DNA of 64,000 nucleotides from Calditrichia bacterium (GTDB taxonomy: Bacteria > Calditrichota > Calditrichia > RBG-13-44-9 > J075), in NCBI GenBank assembly GCA_050633245.1, contig JBOEGD010000020.1, positions 205,710-269,709 of the forward strand, read 5' to 3'. Positions 57,732 to 62,084 of this stretch are shown here, piece after piece. The notes below the pieces were generated by a model that saw only the letters and a program-made list of their open reading frames with translations, was not told where the DNA came from and searched no databases. The position numbers were made by a program, and so were the translations under genes. The first letter of the stretch is position 1, and every line of letters starts with the position of its first letter.

Positions 57732-58121
57732 TTGAAACAATCTTTACATGCTATGGCATTGGTAGTACGCGATTACGACGAGGCCATTGAATATTTTACA
57801 CAAAAGCTGCGATTTCAGCTGTTGGAAGACTCTGATCTGGGAGGCGGCAAACGCTGGGTGCGTGTGGCTCCTGCCGGAAGCGATGGCGCATCTCTGCTTC
57901 TCGCCAAAGCAACTAAACCTGAACAGGTAGATGCCATTGGCAATCAATCCGGTGGGCGCGTTTTTTTATTCCTGCACACCGATGATTTTTGGCGAGACTA
58001 TAATTTCATGAAAGAGCAAGGTGTTGAATTCCGCGAAGAGCCGCGTGAGGAAGTATACGGTACGGTAGTCGTCTTTGAGGATCTGTACGGAAATGCCTGG
58101 GATATGATTGAGAGGAAATAA
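57732..58121 (+). CDS. VOC/glyoxalase family protein
   Basis: LVVRDYDEAI, KRWVRVAP, GNQSGGRVFLFL, VFEDLYGNAWD; AGGAG RBS with TTG start. Confidence 0.92.
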   Translation: MKQSLHAMALVVRDYDEAIEYFTQKLRFQLLEDSDLGGGKRWVRVAPAGSDGASLLLAKATKPEQVDAIGNQSGGRVFLFLHTDDFWRDYNFMKEQGVEFREEPREEVYGTVVVFEDLYGNAWDMIERK

Positions 58122-58440
58122 TAGATCGCTTCGCTGGTAGACCGCACCTTCGGTGCTTGTAGTTCGCTTCGCTTGTAGATCGCTTCGCTTGTAGAACGCT
58201 TCGCTGGTAGACCGCACCTTCGGTGCTGGTAGTTCGCTTCGCTGGTAGACCGCACCTTCGGTGCTTGTAGATCGCTTCGCTTGTAGAACGCTTCGCTTGT
58301 AGAACGCTTCGCTGGTAGGTCGTCCCTTCGGGACTTGTAGATCGCTCACTGCGTTCGCTTGTGCCGAAAGGATTCGTTTCCTACAGCGCCTCAGGCGCGT
58401 CCTACCCTCTACCAGCGCAGGCCGAAGGCCGTAGCGATCT
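58122..58440. repeat. Array of GTAG-tagged mini-hairpin repeats (13 direct units + 2 inverted units), REP/BIME-like
   Basis: Eight 16-nt units TAGwwCGCTTCGCTkG, three 22-nt units TAGACCGCACCTTCGGTGCTkG, one GTCCCTTCGGGAC variant and one 24-nt variant; inverted units at 58381-58405 and 58409-58440. Confidence 0.9.
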
Positions 58441-58554
58441 TTCATCTGTAATTCATCAATCATTAAATATTTCCCGTCTCATTTTACATTTTTGCTGCAT
58501 CAAAGTAACAGTCGGCGTATATTATAAACTGAACCTAAGTAGGAGAACGGAAGC

Positions 58555-59207: not shown

Positions 59208-60125
59208 ATGACCCTTCCTTTTATTTATCATCCTGATTATGTGACGCCTTTGCCTGAAGGGCATCGTTTTCCAATGCCTAAATTTGGTGAAGTTCAGCGA
59301 ATTTTGCTGAGCGAGGGGATTGTAGGGCCAGAGCAATTCTACGTTCCTGAGATAGCGTCTCGCGATATGCTGCAGCTTGTTCATTCACCGCAATATGTTG
59401 ATGCCTTCTGTGATGGAACGCTGGATCGACAGGCGGAACGCCGTATTGGGCTTCCCTGGAGTAATGGATTGGTAAAGCGCACCCGAACGGCGGTTGGAGG
59501 AACAGTTCTTACCGTAAAACTAGCCCTGGAACACGGCATTGCCTGCAACACGGCCGGTGGAACCCATCATGCCTTTCCCGAGTATGGTTCGGGGTTTTGT
59601 ATCTTCAATGATATTGCTATTGCAGCGCAGTATGCCCGAAGTGCCGGGCTTGCCAAGCGTGTTCTGATAGTGGATTTAGATGTACATCAGGGAGATGCTA
59701 CGGCTTTCATCTTTGCCGACGAGCCGGATGTGTTTACGTTTTCAATGCACTGTGGCGTTAACTTTCCGTTTCGCAAACAAAAAAGCGATTTAGATGTCGA
59801 CCTGCCTGTCGGTATGAATGATGATGCGTATTTGGTCGCGCTGGAAAACCATCTGCCCGACCTACTTTCTACATTTAATCCCGATCTTGTTATTTACGAT
59901 GCCGGTGTCGATCCACATAAGGATGATAGCCTTGGAAAATTGGCTCTTAGCAATGAAGGGCTCTATCGTCGCGATGCGATAGTTGTTGGGCGCTGTCTGG
60001 CGAATGGTTTTCCAATTGCTACTGTAATTGGCGGCGGTTATGACAAGGATATTGTTGCATTAGCTCACCGTCATACCATGGTGCATCGTGCAGCAACGGA
60101 TCTGGTGCGCCGGCTTCATTCTTAA
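59208..60125 (+). CDS. Histone deacetylase family protein
   Basis: HRFPMPKF, GGTHHA, GFCIFND, DLDVHQGD, AGVDPH..D.LG, GGGY. Confidence 0.93.
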   Translation: MTLPFIYHPDYVTPLPEGHRFPMPKFGEVQRILLSEGIVGPEQFYVPEIASRDMLQLVHSPQYVDAFCDGTLDRQAERRIGLPWSNGLVKRTRTAVGGTVLTVKLALEHGIACNTAGGTHHAFPEYGSGFCIFNDIAIAAQYARSAGLAKRVLIVDLDVHQGDATAFIFADEPDVFTFSMHCGVNFPFRKQKSDLDVDLPVGMNDDAYLVALENHLPDLLSTFNPDLVIYDAGVDPHKDDSLGKLALSNEGLYRRDAIVVGRCLANGFPIATVIGGGYDKDIVALAHRHTMVHRAATDLVRRLHS

Positions 60126-60136
60126 GCGTGGATGCG

Positions 60137-60274
60137 ATGAAAAGGACAAACCTCCCGGAAAAAAATTGCTCGATTTGCAATCGTCCATTCAAGTGGCGCA
60201 GGAAATGGGAGTCGATTTGGGATGAAGTGAAGTACTGTAGCGAACGCTGTAGACGAAGGCGGAAGACTAAATAA
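60137..60274 (+). CDS. DUF2256 family small Cys-rich protein (45 aa, not in the ORF track)
   Basis: Manual translation: MKRTNLPEKNCSICNRPFKWRRKWESIWDEVKYCSERCRRRRKTK. Confidence 0.88.
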   Translation: MKRTNLPEKNCSICNRPFKWRRKWESIWDEVKYCSERCRRRRKTK

Positions 60275-60354
60275 GACTAAAATGGTCGTATTTTTTTACT
60301 GGCTTTTAATTATTTCTTTTCCTATCTTTTTTTCTACGAACTGAAGGTGAGTAT

Positions 60355-60708
60355 ATGACGCAAACCAAAGGACAGGTTGAAGCTGAAATAAGCGCTGCCT
60401 TTACGCGCTTCGAGAAGGATTATTTTGGTCGCGGCCCACGTGAAGTTCGAACATTTATTATTGAGGATATGATTCTCATTCGCCTGAAAGGTGTACTAAC
60501 ACCTGCTGAAGAAAAACTTGCGGCATCGGATGGTGCGGCCCTTATTAAAGAAATCCGCATGCGCCTGATTGAAACATCGCGCCCGATTATTGAGACAATT
60601 ATACACGATATTACGAATGCTCAGGTTGTAACATTGCATACGGATATCAGCTCCAAAACGGGCGAAAGAGTGATTGTACTTGGTATGAATAAAGAGCTTT
60701 TTGCTTGA
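60355..60708 (+). CDS. DUF2294 / MpsC family protein
   Basis: TKGQVEAEIS...FEKDYFGRGP...LKGVLTPAE...LHTDISSKTGERVIV. Confidence 0.88.
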   Translation: MTQTKGQVEAEISAAFTRFEKDYFGRGPREVRTFIIEDMILIRLKGVLTPAEEKLAASDGAALIKEIRMRLIETSRPIIETIIHDITNAQVVTLHTDISSKTGERVIVLGMNKELFA

Positions 60709-60744
60709 TAAAGTAGAATTGATTTAGACTCATTGTTTAAGAAA

Positions 60745-60925
60745 GCCTGTCTATAGACAGAATAGACAAAGCGCATTCCGGAGCAGATTTCGCACAAACG
60801 AAATACAGCTACGGACACAAAATGTAAATACGGTAGATATTCGGAAGGCTCTTGCAGGAAGAGCAGACCAAATTGTAGACCGGTACTCAAAACATTCAGA
60901 TGGATGTGAGTGCCGGTCTTTTTTT
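60745..60925 (+). promoter_or_regulatory. Structured leader ending in an intrinsic terminator (candidate attenuator/riboswitch)
   Basis: Hairpins at 60748-60768, 60777-60815 and 60848-60864; 13-bp terminator stem 60877-60889/60907-60919 with T7, 25 nt before the next start codon. Confidence 0.6.
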
Positions 60926-60950
60926 GTATGAATACAGGAAGGAGTACGCT

Positions 60951-62084
60951 ATGGATTTGCAGAGTATTGTTAAGTCACTTGCCCACGTAAAACCCAACGG
61001 GCGCCCTTATGTCAGCCTTTATTTGAACCTTGAAACAGATGTGGTCTCCCGCAAGGAAAGTGAACGGTTTTTGATTGAACGATATCAGCGTTTGGTAAAA
61101 GGTGACTTACAAACGATTCCCTTTGGTCATGAAGCAAATGAAATATGGCATAAAATTGAAAATTATTTAGCGGAAGAAAGAAGCAGTGGAACACGTGGCG
61201 TGGCAATTTTTGCACGATATGAAGAAGAGGGAAAACTGAACTTTCTAACACATGAATTTCCACTTCCGTTTGATAATAAACTGGTAGTCGATAGTGTTCC
61301 ACATATTTTTCCGCTGGTTTATTTGCTCGATGTGTCGTATCACTATCTTGTGTTGATTTCTGACTCGGAAAAAGCCAAGATTTTTGAGATTCGTTTTGGT
61401 CAAATTGAAGACATTGAATTGATTTCTGATGCCGAAAGCGAAAAGAGCTTTCGCGGAGAGTGGACGCAGCTTCATTATCAGAACTGGAAGAATGATAAGG
61501 TGAAGCGGTTTGTTAAGTCCAAAATAGATATAGTGGAAAAGTTGATGACCGAGCGTGATATTAAACATTTGATTATGGCCGGTGACGAGCGGATTGTTGC
61601 TGAGATAAAAGGGCAGTTACCACCAGCGCTTGTTGAGAAGGTTGTAGACTTCTCACGAATGCACATTCGATCTAACCCTGAACTGGTGCTTCACAAAACA
61701 CTGGAAGAGTTTGCTCGATATGAACGTGCAGCCGAGACCGGAGTGGTCGATAGCTTACAGTATCAAGTTGCCCGTGATGGCCTAGGGGTTGTTGGAAGCG
61801 AAAAAACAATAGAAGCCCTGAATATGGGCAAAGTTGACACCCTGCTTGTGTCACTCGATTTTGATGCACCGGGCGGCTGGCGCTGCGAAGCATGTGGCCA
61901 CTTAACAATGGCAATTCTTCGCCAGTCTTGCCTCGCTTGTAAAAGTGATGATGTATTTCATGTCGATCTGAAGGACGACATTGTAAGACGCGCAGCGCAG
62001 ATTGGCGCGACAATTGAGACGGTAACTGATAATTCCTGGCTTGATAAACATGAAGGAATTGGCGCGCTTCTGCGATTCCGATAA
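60951..62084 (+). CDS. Bacterial aeRF1-like release factor homolog (baeRF10/Vms1-like) with zinc ribbon
   Basis: YVSLYL, RGVAIFA, RGEWTQLHYQ loop, eRF1 domain-3-like ALNMGKVDTLLV, CEACG...CLAC, GIGALLRF; AGGAG RBS. Confidence 0.8.
   Translation: MDLQSIVKSLAHVKPNGRPYVSLYLNLETDVVSRKESERFLIERYQRLVKGDLQTIPFGHEANEIWHKIENYLAEERSSGTRGVAIFARYEEEGKLNFLTHEFPLPFDNKLVVDSVPHIFPLVYLLDVSYHYLVLISDSEKAKIFEIRFGQIEDIELISDAESEKSFRGEWTQLHYQNWKNDKVKRFVKSKIDIVEKLMTERDIKHLIMAGDERIVAEIKGQLPPALVEKVVDFSRMHIRSNPELVLHKTLEEFARYERAAETGVVDSLQYQVARDGLGVVGSEKTIEALNMGKVDTLLVSLDFDAPGGWRCEACGHLTMAILRQSCLACKSDDVFHVDLKDDIVRRAAQIGATIETVTDNSWLDKHEGIGALLRFR

Follow-up and report, generated by a model that had tools for sequence, protein, structure and literature searches.

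A conserved antiterminator RNA downstream of mpsC (DUF2294) genes: a predicted transcription attenuator with putative MpsC-mediated antitermination

The competition between an antiterminator and an intrinsic terminator is a textbook principle of gene control; what appears to be new in the work described here is an RNA family built on it and the obligate link of that family to DUF2294 genes. We analyzed a 64,000-nucleotide (nt) stretch of the genome of a Calditrichia bacterium (assembly GCA_050633245.1, contig JBOEGD010000020.1, positions 205,710 to 269,709), called the window below, in which a 242-nt gap separates mpsC, a gene of the DUF2294 (MpsC) family, from a baeRF_family10 gene and nhaA. 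Computation shows that an element in this gap belongs to a covarying RNA family whose members, spread over three phyla, lie with few exceptions shortly after mpsC/DUF2294 genes. The motif is a single long hairpin with a purine loop by its closing helix. Judged from sequence and folding, the gap very probably has the architecture of an attenuator in which an antiterminator competes with an intrinsic terminator. The proposal as a whole, in which MpsC would mediate the antitermination, we consider evenly balanced.

Several regulatory systems with a related organization have been described. In the hut operon of Bacillus subtilis the first gene encodes a small regulator, a terminator precedes the structural genes, and read-through follows when HutP binds and recognizes repeated UAG triplets. 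The order at our locus is similar (small gene, terminator, further genes), but positions 60828-60886 of the window contain just two UAG triplets (60834 and 60876), 42 nt apart, and the comparison of MpsC with the chains of the Protein Data Bank (PDB) yielded no significant sequence relation. The ribonucleic antiterminator (RAT) elements bound by BglG, LicT, SacY and GlcT are irregular, protein-stabilized hairpins whose 3' side overlaps the 5' arm of a terminator, often with the regulator gene just upstream, as in glcT-ptsG. The motif shares this overlap architecture, but its hairpin is longer (51-91 nt across the family) and follows another consensus; no CAT-PRD protein was found among six genes scanned around the leader. 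In the pyr operon the regulator gene also comes first and several attenuators lie between the genes, with PyrR stabilizing an anti-antiterminator and thereby promoting termination. The second motif copies found after psiE in three loci are similar to this arrangement, but the conserved element here is the antiterminator itself. Finally, the ANTAR regulators AmiR, EutV and NasT fuse a receiver to an RNA-binding output that prevents terminator formation, their targets being two tandem short hexaloop hairpins, the second of which overlaps the terminator. Receiver–MpsC fusions offer a parallel; however, the motif is one long hairpin with an apical loop variable in length and sequence, and MpsC carries no ANTAR domain by Pfam.

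Riboswitches form the other group of comparable systems. According to the excerpted texts of PMC9337991 and PMC9646797, Na+-I and Li+/Na+-II riboswitches occupy the leaders of nhaA and cation-transport genes, some of them act as ON switches via an intrinsic terminator, and tandem copies occur. In all these respects the Na+-I (Sodium, RF03071) and Li+/Na+-II (nhaA-I, RF03057) classes resemble the motif. They differ in being two-hairpin aptamers with a conserved P1 foot and P2 loop, and in being defined by their downstream genes, whereas the motif is defined by the upstream mpsC. The earlier note on this DNA saw no match to the nhaA-I, nhaA-II or DUF1646 riboswitch consensuses, and database searches agree: Rfam 15 (4227 families) gave no match to the leader at E <= 10, nor to 19 related loci. 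The nhaA-I model (gathering threshold 37 bits) found nothing in 60000-61500 at E <= 10 and two matches of at most 14.3 bits on other contigs of the genome, and the Sodium/DUF1646 model (gathering threshold 40.5 bits) had no match in the genome at E <= 10. The Rfam 15 families without a match presumably include nhaA-II, the Li+-II riboswitch. The literature searched, which for large motif surveys means their main text, holds no description of the motif, and among the matches listed none joins Calditrichota-like or KSB1 phyla with regulatory RNA. The main text of PMC5737381 names no DUF2294, ybcI, htpX or Caldithrix; its 224 motifs are listed in supplementary files, which could affect the claim of novelty.

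The family was assembled starting from distant relatives of the window's baeRF product (42-47% identical) in genomes and metagenomes of the candidate division KSB1 type, where mpsC lies upstream and is followed by two terminator-bearing elements. The window MpsC protein, searched in 86 genomes of its own phylum, identified mpsC in 20, and in 16 of these 20 loci a common layout was seen 60-250 nt past the stop codon: YGG-N-AG-AC on the 5' side, next a helix and an apical hairpin, then GU-AAG-CCRG, and finally a terminator with its 5' arm starting at GCCRG. Both KSB1 elements have this layout and are tandem copies of it. Other searches gave little. A single baeRF protein as query gave nothing in the initial locus scan; a 24-nt KSB1-type leader pattern recovered two already known genomes only, plus two chance matches in coding sequence; and a DNA search with the leader in 40 relatives produced chance matches apart from one real terminator match in G039.

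Twenty-seven instances from the two phyla, joined in a plain MAFFT alignment, formed the training set of the family model R1. In the 22-pair structure derived from them 80.6% of the cells are paired, as compared to 27-42% when the 3' partners are slid, a control that is flattered by the structure coming from the same 27 sequences. Changes on both sides occur in 18 of the 22 pairs, the covariation score is 0.363 versus at most 0.145 for the slid arrangements, and none of 500 shuffles reaches the observed values. Because the structure came from the training sequences themselves, we also checked 21 matches from outside the training set. Aligned by the model, and hence with the opposite bias of an alignment fitted to it, they pair in 82.1% of cells (24-36% slid) and show compensatory changes in 17 of the 22 pairs. 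The comparative search downstream of DUF2294 genes that the earlier note had called for was thus positive, revealing a conserved, covarying structure. The closing helix is rich in G.U pairs in the 27-instance alignment, and therefore the structure belongs to the sense-strand RNA rather than to the DNA. The GG and CC of this helix (YGG/CCR) are invariant in 51 unique instances.

Overlap of the hairpin with a terminator is equally regular. A script detects, in 48 of 49 instances, a hairpin that ends in a U run and has the start of its 5' arm 5-10 nt before the motif end; in the remaining one the script took a U run within the loop, and the terminator was recognized by eye. The minimum-energy fold of the full length contains the terminator in 44 of the 49. 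For the window the script places the start of the terminator arm 8 nt before the motif end, one base inside 60877-60919, as it dropped the U run from the fold. An alignment of the terminators of the window, of a related metagenome locus (L039) and of four KSB1-type sequences has compensatory changes in 9 of 17 pairs. A whole-leader MAFFT alignment had equated the window terminator with the first KSB1 terminator; this was rejected, as module-wise alignment matches it to the second instead.

The linkage to mpsC is tight throughout. In the own phylum model R1 has 25 matches in 20 of the 86 genomes: 16 directly after mpsC, four second copies in the same operon, one 2.5 kb downstream of mpsC, and four unlinked ones. 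The second copies lie 0.6-1.1 kb further on; all four precede an mpsC paralogue, three of them following psiE and the fourth being in G017. Of the unlinked copies, that of G222 is on a different contig, those of G246 and G011 precede usp and nhaA, respectively, and that of G237 is a weak match at a contig end. A stricter filter in the 86-genome run missed the window copy, which a search of its own genome recovered; it starts at 60831, on the same strand as mpsC and within about 320 nt of the mpsC stop codon at 60708. In the KSB1-type phylum there are 20 matches in 17 of 151 genomes, and all 16 new ones lie 59-312 nt after mpsC. Here 21 of 167 genomes have mpsC, among them every genome with a motif match; of the four remaining mpsC genomes, searched singly, three have the motif 120-144 nt past mpsC and G108 has none. 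In a third phylum, that of L051, the single match in 151 genomes lies 52 nt after mpsC and before an htpX-like gene. Altogether the motif occurs in 19 of 20 own-phylum genomes with mpsC versus 2 of 66 without it, and in 20 of 21 KSB1-type genomes with mpsC, counts that describe tight linkage and are not a statistical test, since related genomes are not independent samples and the training copies of the model were found after mpsC. Two of the genomes with unlinked copies, G222 and G246, have mpsC elsewhere, as would be expected of a trans-acting protein.

Between mpsC1 and the mpsC paralogue some KSB1-type loci have two copies in tandem, both with a terminator of their own (L043 3182-3406; L048 3434-3654; L049 2071-2280; L050 392-626). 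In such tandem loci GCUGG, the 3' arm of the first terminator, could pair with CCAGC, the 5' arm of the second, so that a relay of states between copies is possible.

In the window the gap as a whole is strongly structured. Its folding energy is -68.4 kcal/mol, whereas 200 shuffles average -48.2 and none of them is as stable (z = -4.82), and all hairpins, the terminator and the two AGACC copies listed in the earlier note are present where it placed them. The motif proper is the 52-nt hairpin 60831-60882. Folded alone, 60828-60886 adopts exactly the family structure in RNAfold, at -17.0 kcal/mol. With positions shortened to their last two digits, the closing helix consists of C31-G82, G32-C81, G33-C80 and U34-A79. 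It is followed by a purine loop with non-canonical A35/G78 and G36/A77, in agreement with the family pattern of 5' R-G opposite 3' A-R, then by the inner pairs A37-U76, U38.G75, A39-U74, G43-C69 and G44-C68, and by the hairpin 60848-60864. The U in place of C in the A-C/G-U helix is a wobble variant seen in 8% of instances. Model R1 scores the window copy at 35.4 bits (E 2.5e-5 genome-wide), its sole match in the genome and, as this copy is in the training set, a match partly by construction. The leader is present once in the 6.3-Mb genome, as is mpsC, and the 15-mer CGGTAGATATTCGGA has no other meaningful copy there, two matches with one mismatch falling in coding sequence.

The terminator that competes with this hairpin shares six bases with it, 60877-60882. 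Its outer stem, 60877-60889 with 60907-60919, has 13 base pairs (bp) including one G.U and is followed by U7. A simple terminator scan did not list it because its loop exceeds the 3-8 nt rule of the scan. Taken separately, the terminator is the stronger of the two structures (-26.3 versus -17.0 kcal/mol), and the whole stretch folds at -36.6 kcal/mol with the terminator versus -28.6 with the closing helix enforced. The default state is therefore predicted to be off, and read-through would require that the closing helix be held by something. Formation of the terminator displaces the closing helix only, and the most conserved bases (GG, AG-AC, GUA and CC) sit precisely at this helix and the purine loop. 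The earlier note's suggestion that two AGACC copies (60865 and 60877) compete for the GGTCT of the terminator is not borne out: the first copy reads AGGCC, AAGCC or CGGCC in relatives (AGGCC or AAGCC in three sequencing runs), and the conserved competitor is instead CGGU at 60831-60834, pairing with ACCG at 60879-60882.

Comparison with close sequences supports the same structure. The near relatives are contigs of three sequencing runs (X1, X4 and X7), 93-96% alike, that cover the leader; more distant is L039, a metagenome locus identical to L040, whose proteins are about 82-84% identical and whose genes keep the order of mpsC, leader, baeRF and nhaA. The stretch 60831-60845 is invariant in all of them. 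The leader of L039 has mostly diverged; what it retains is an identical CGGTAGATATTCGGA, the stem of the hairpin that follows, and a terminator with altered but pairing sequence. Changes in the near relatives fall in loops and linkers. The hairpin 60848-60864 keeps its stem while its loop reads GCAGG in the window, GAAA-type in X1 and UAAA in L039, and the outer terminator stem is unchanged in X1, X4 and X7 except that one X7 contig, at a depth below 3, lacks 1 nt at 60918. A T-to-C change at 60896 in all three runs turns a terminator G.U into G-C, and the U.G pair of the window antiterminator is U-A in L039 when its letters are paired manually.

The hairpins further upstream behave differently. 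Here the palindrome CTGTCTATAGACAG (60747-60760) is followed by another ATAGACA copy (60762-60768), and X1 has no 60761-60769 and hence lacks this second ATAGACA, which L039 does not keep either. The stems of 60777-60815 are unchanged in near relatives, with one change in an internal loop (60806); in L039 the base of this stem is kept and its tip is different. Model R1 finds no match at E <= 10 in 60747-60815. From the chain of hairpins that the earlier note had read as one leader, 60848-60864 and the terminator are therefore kept, while 60747-60815 falls outside the family. On visual inspection the segment 60760-60831 resembles a degenerate motif copy lying upstream, an idea that was dropped as R1 gives no match at E <= 10 even with filters off.

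Table 1. Coordinates of the leader elements and flanking genes in the window.
Feature	Position	Strand	Description or basis
mpsC (DUF2294)	60355..60708	+	117 aa; Pfam PF10057 (MpsC), E 1.3e-35
Lineage-specific upstream hairpins	60747..60815	+	palindrome 60747-60760 and interrupted stem 60777-60815; outside the conserved family
Antiterminator 5' strand CGGUAGAUAUUCGGA	60831..60845	+	conserved GG-N-AG-A(C/U) signature; pairs with 60868-60882 (RNAfold of 60828-60886; model alignment)
Antiterminator apical hairpin GCUCUU / AAGAGC	60848..60864	+	stem kept, loop variable; family has covarying apical helices here
Antiterminator 3' strand CCAAAUUGUAGACCG	60868..60882	+	conserved GUA-R-R-CC-R signature; 60877-60882 also terminator
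Intrinsic terminator	60877..60925	+	12+6 bp hairpin 60877-60919, U tract 60919-60925; -26.3 kcal/mol
Shine-Dalgarno AGGAAGGAG (60936-60944) and baeRF ATG (60951)	60936..60953	+	sequence
Putative controlled operon baeRF_family10 + nhaA	60951..63420	+	Pfam; same order in L039/L040
baeRF_family10 gene	60951-62084	+	Pfam
nhaA	62107-63420	+	Pfam Na_H_antiport_1

Taken together, the control element in the gap is genuine, conserved and based on a terminator, and the need of the downstream genes for read-through, which the earlier note had put forward, is plausible. We propose the following course of events. As the leader is transcribed, 60831-60882 would be able to fold into a long irregular antiterminator hairpin, built in layers from the CGGU/ACCG closing helix, the conserved two-by-two purine loop, an AUA/UGU helix, a GG/CC helix and the apical hairpin 60848-60864. 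By default the stronger terminator 60877-60919 with its U7 would win and transcription would stop 25 nt before baeRF-nhaA. A factor that holds the closing helix and purine loop would block the terminator and allow baeRF and nhaA to be transcribed. This factor would most plausibly be MpsC, encoded immediately upstream and acting in a HutP-, LicT- or PyrR-like manner in response to cation or envelope stress.

The genes that would come under this control vary. They were assigned by Pfam on representatives and otherwise by eye. The first gene past the terminator is most often a paralogue of mpsC that shares about 20% identity with the upstream mpsC; others encode Peptidase_M48 (HtpX-like), PsiE, Usp, a GreA/GreB C-terminal-domain protein, NhaA, baeRF-NhaA or membrane peptides of 38-53 amino acids (aa). 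Further downstream are a Na/Ca exchanger, CNNM and a P-type-ATPase-like gene, the last named by eye from its N-terminal letters. The distance from the U run to the next start is at most 30 nt in 21 of 47 downstream open reading frames (ORFs), the window included, and 241 nt at the longest. The small peptides, with a charged N-terminus and one hydrophobic stretch (G-x-W-V-L...), are encoded by the first ORF after the terminator in six loci: L080 1956-2114, L105 1399-1515 and, on the minus strand, L073 1056-1169, L078 1119-1235, L119 1327-1443 and L126 1326-1442. The one scanned, from L080, belongs to no Pfam family; the peptides may be conserved small membrane proteins controlled in the same way. 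Proteins consisting of the GreA/GreB C-terminal domain only recur in controlled operons as well (L049 2678-3013; L125 1152-1427, minus strand), so that this neighborhood holds a second small protein related to transcription.

Which factor holds the antiterminator is the question on which the readings divide, and the two effectors suggested by the earlier note, an ion-sensing RNA and DUF2294 as antiterminator, are the two that remain. For MpsC speaks that the constant neighbor of the motif is the upstream mpsC, with downstream genes that vary. In riboswitches the controlled genes are the constant feature, while regulators are encoded beside their targets in hutP, glcT and pyrR; a constant upstream gene therefore agrees with a regulator gene that adjoins its target. 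The MpsC protein is small and cytoplasmic, and receiver-domain–MpsC fusions exist (Atlas, profile search; Pfam on P0350 and P0384), showing at the level of sequence the MpsC domain placed where response regulators carry their output domains. We judge MpsC as the antitermination factor to be an evenly poised proposition. In its fuller form, which we put somewhat short of such balance, DUF2294/MpsC would be a new family of RNA-binding antiterminators with the motif as its target. It would be a cytoplasmic sensor of cation or envelope stress that clamps GG-N-AG-AC / GUAAGCC and governs a stress regulon of nhaA, htpX, psiE, usp, cation transporters and MpsC2, and in other phyla response regulators would use it as their RNA-binding output, as they do ANTAR. 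Several observations weigh against this. The profile search of PDB sequences with MpsC yielded non-significant matches only (E 0.19-0.87), and by residue count MpsC1 is not markedly basic. The window copy departs from the consensus (GUAGACC for GUAAGCC; A-U/U.G for A-U/C-G) and is the second lowest-scoring of the 27 training instances, only one being lower (30.5 bits). As the model was trained on instances sought after mpsC, diverged copies elsewhere could be missed. In some loci an own promoter likely lies between mpsC and the motif: promoter-like sites are TTTG-N19-TATATTTG in L072, about 45-80 nt past the mpsC stop, which we take to be of the Bacteroidota type, and TTGCAA-N17-TATAAT in L106, about 85-115 nt before the motif. 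With these promoters, co-transcription of mpsC and leader would not be general. Moreover, nhaA, cation transporters and usp are typical of control by ion riboswitches, and G011 (83% complete) has the motif before nhaA and no mpsC by Pfam. Its U tract has only four U and a sigma-70-like TTGCAA-N17-TATAAT site lies just upstream, which suggests that this copy may be vestigial.

These last points lead to a riboswitch, a reading we consider possible but on balance rather unlikely. Here the conserved internal loop near the closing helix would bind a ligand, an ion or small molecule such as Na+, Li+ or some other signal of cation stress, and stabilize the antiterminator without a protein, mpsC being merely the first gene of a stress operon. 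The compactness of the motif and its near-invariant loop bases would fit, and so would G011; nhaA, the Na/Ca exchanger, usp and the P-type-ATPase-like gene match known Na+/Li+ riboswitch genes in the excerpts of PMC9337991, PMC9646797 and PMC5737381, and the KSB1-type copies in tandem, each with a terminator, recall the tandem riboswitches described in PMC9646797. Yet a riboswitch gives no reason for constant upstream and variable downstream genes, although all 16 new KSB1-type matches and the third-phylum match follow mpsC; the motif is found in almost no genome without mpsC, the copy in G011 is perhaps vestigial, and the nhaA-I and Sodium models do not match. The architecture by itself is silent on the factor, so another trans-acting RNA-binding protein, a small RNA or a tRNA could hold the antiterminator, with mpsC linked for a different reason. 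Recurring GreA/GreB C-terminal-domain proteins and mpsC paralogues might be candidates, but no neighbor is as constant as mpsC1 and the window has neither a greA-like gene nor an mpsC paralogue, which makes this improbable. That the element is a mere mpsC terminator with a stabilizing hairpin, or a small RNA derived from the 3' untranslated region, with baeRF-nhaA read by leakage or from an own promoter and no regulation at all, is in our view quite improbable. The element does follow a gene and end in a strong terminator, and a conserved single-stranded stretch before it would fit a seed; however, the conserved 5' stretch is not free but covaries with the terminator 5' arm, and the overlap of helices is universal. 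The motif also precedes genes without mpsC upstream (L105, L106, L109) and recurs as a second copy after psiE. In the window only 25 nt separate the end of the U run from the baeRF start codon, with no plus-strand site in the gap by promoter scan, and in 20 of the 46 other ORFs this distance is at most 30 nt. CsrA-type translational control, an alternative the earlier note had kept on account of several GGA motifs, is hardly credible: GGA occurs at 60780, 60843, 60857 and 60902 and in the Shine-Dalgarno sequence, but none is a conserved loop GGA in the family, whose consensus has no such element, the one at 60843 is paired in the antiterminator, and the loop 60854-60858 varies among near relatives.

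The MpsC family itself is large, a profile search retrieving 2709 cluster representatives at E <= 0.001. Relatives of the window MpsC in metagenomes are 62-82% identical to it. A shared-word search for longer, fused forms found two proteins only. An Atlas cluster of receiver–MpsC proteins has 69 members, mostly Planctomycetota, and P0357 contains two MpsC stretches in one protein of 280 aa. Passages of PMC6689103 also fit MpsC as a regulator: deletion of mpsC in Staphylococcus aureus has no MpsAB phenotype, and mpsC does not lie together with mpsAB outside staphylococci.

Some features of the locus are worth recording in their own right. AAGGAAGGAG and CGCTATG of the baeRF start region are also present in L039. 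The named baeRF protein closest to that of the window comes from a 'Calditrichota bacterium'. Homologues of baeRF that are 25-27% identical and lie in the same gene order have neither mpsC nor nhaA adjoining. The baeRF_family10 proteins of the clade (window 60951-62084; L049 3482-5131) are 39-47% identical and share a conserved C-x2-C ... C-x2-C near the C-terminus. They sit in cation-stress operons with usp and nhaA, a release-factor-like protein being found beside an antiporter. Directly 5' of mpsC, a reading frame within 60200-60275 that ends at 60274 has a Cys/Arg-rich tail (…YCSERCRRRRKTK) and resembles a small zinc-ribbon protein. At 57966-58463 the translations of minus-strand ORFs contain a repeated unit of about 25 aa (…TSEAFYKRS.LQAK…), suggesting a tandem DNA repeat between two genes.

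Among cis-regulatory RNAs this family is unusual in being defined by the upstream gene and not by the genes it controls. It turns the question of DUF2294/MpsC function into one that can be tested at the bench, with a named RNA partner, a 59-nt construct and the ratio of terminated to full-length transcript as a readout. If MpsC is indeed the antiterminator, the family would gain a function and the name 'Na+-translocating membrane potential-generating system' would be a misnomer. If instead the RNA itself senses an ion, it would represent a further class of cation riboswitch, from the Calditrichota-like and KSB1 phyla.

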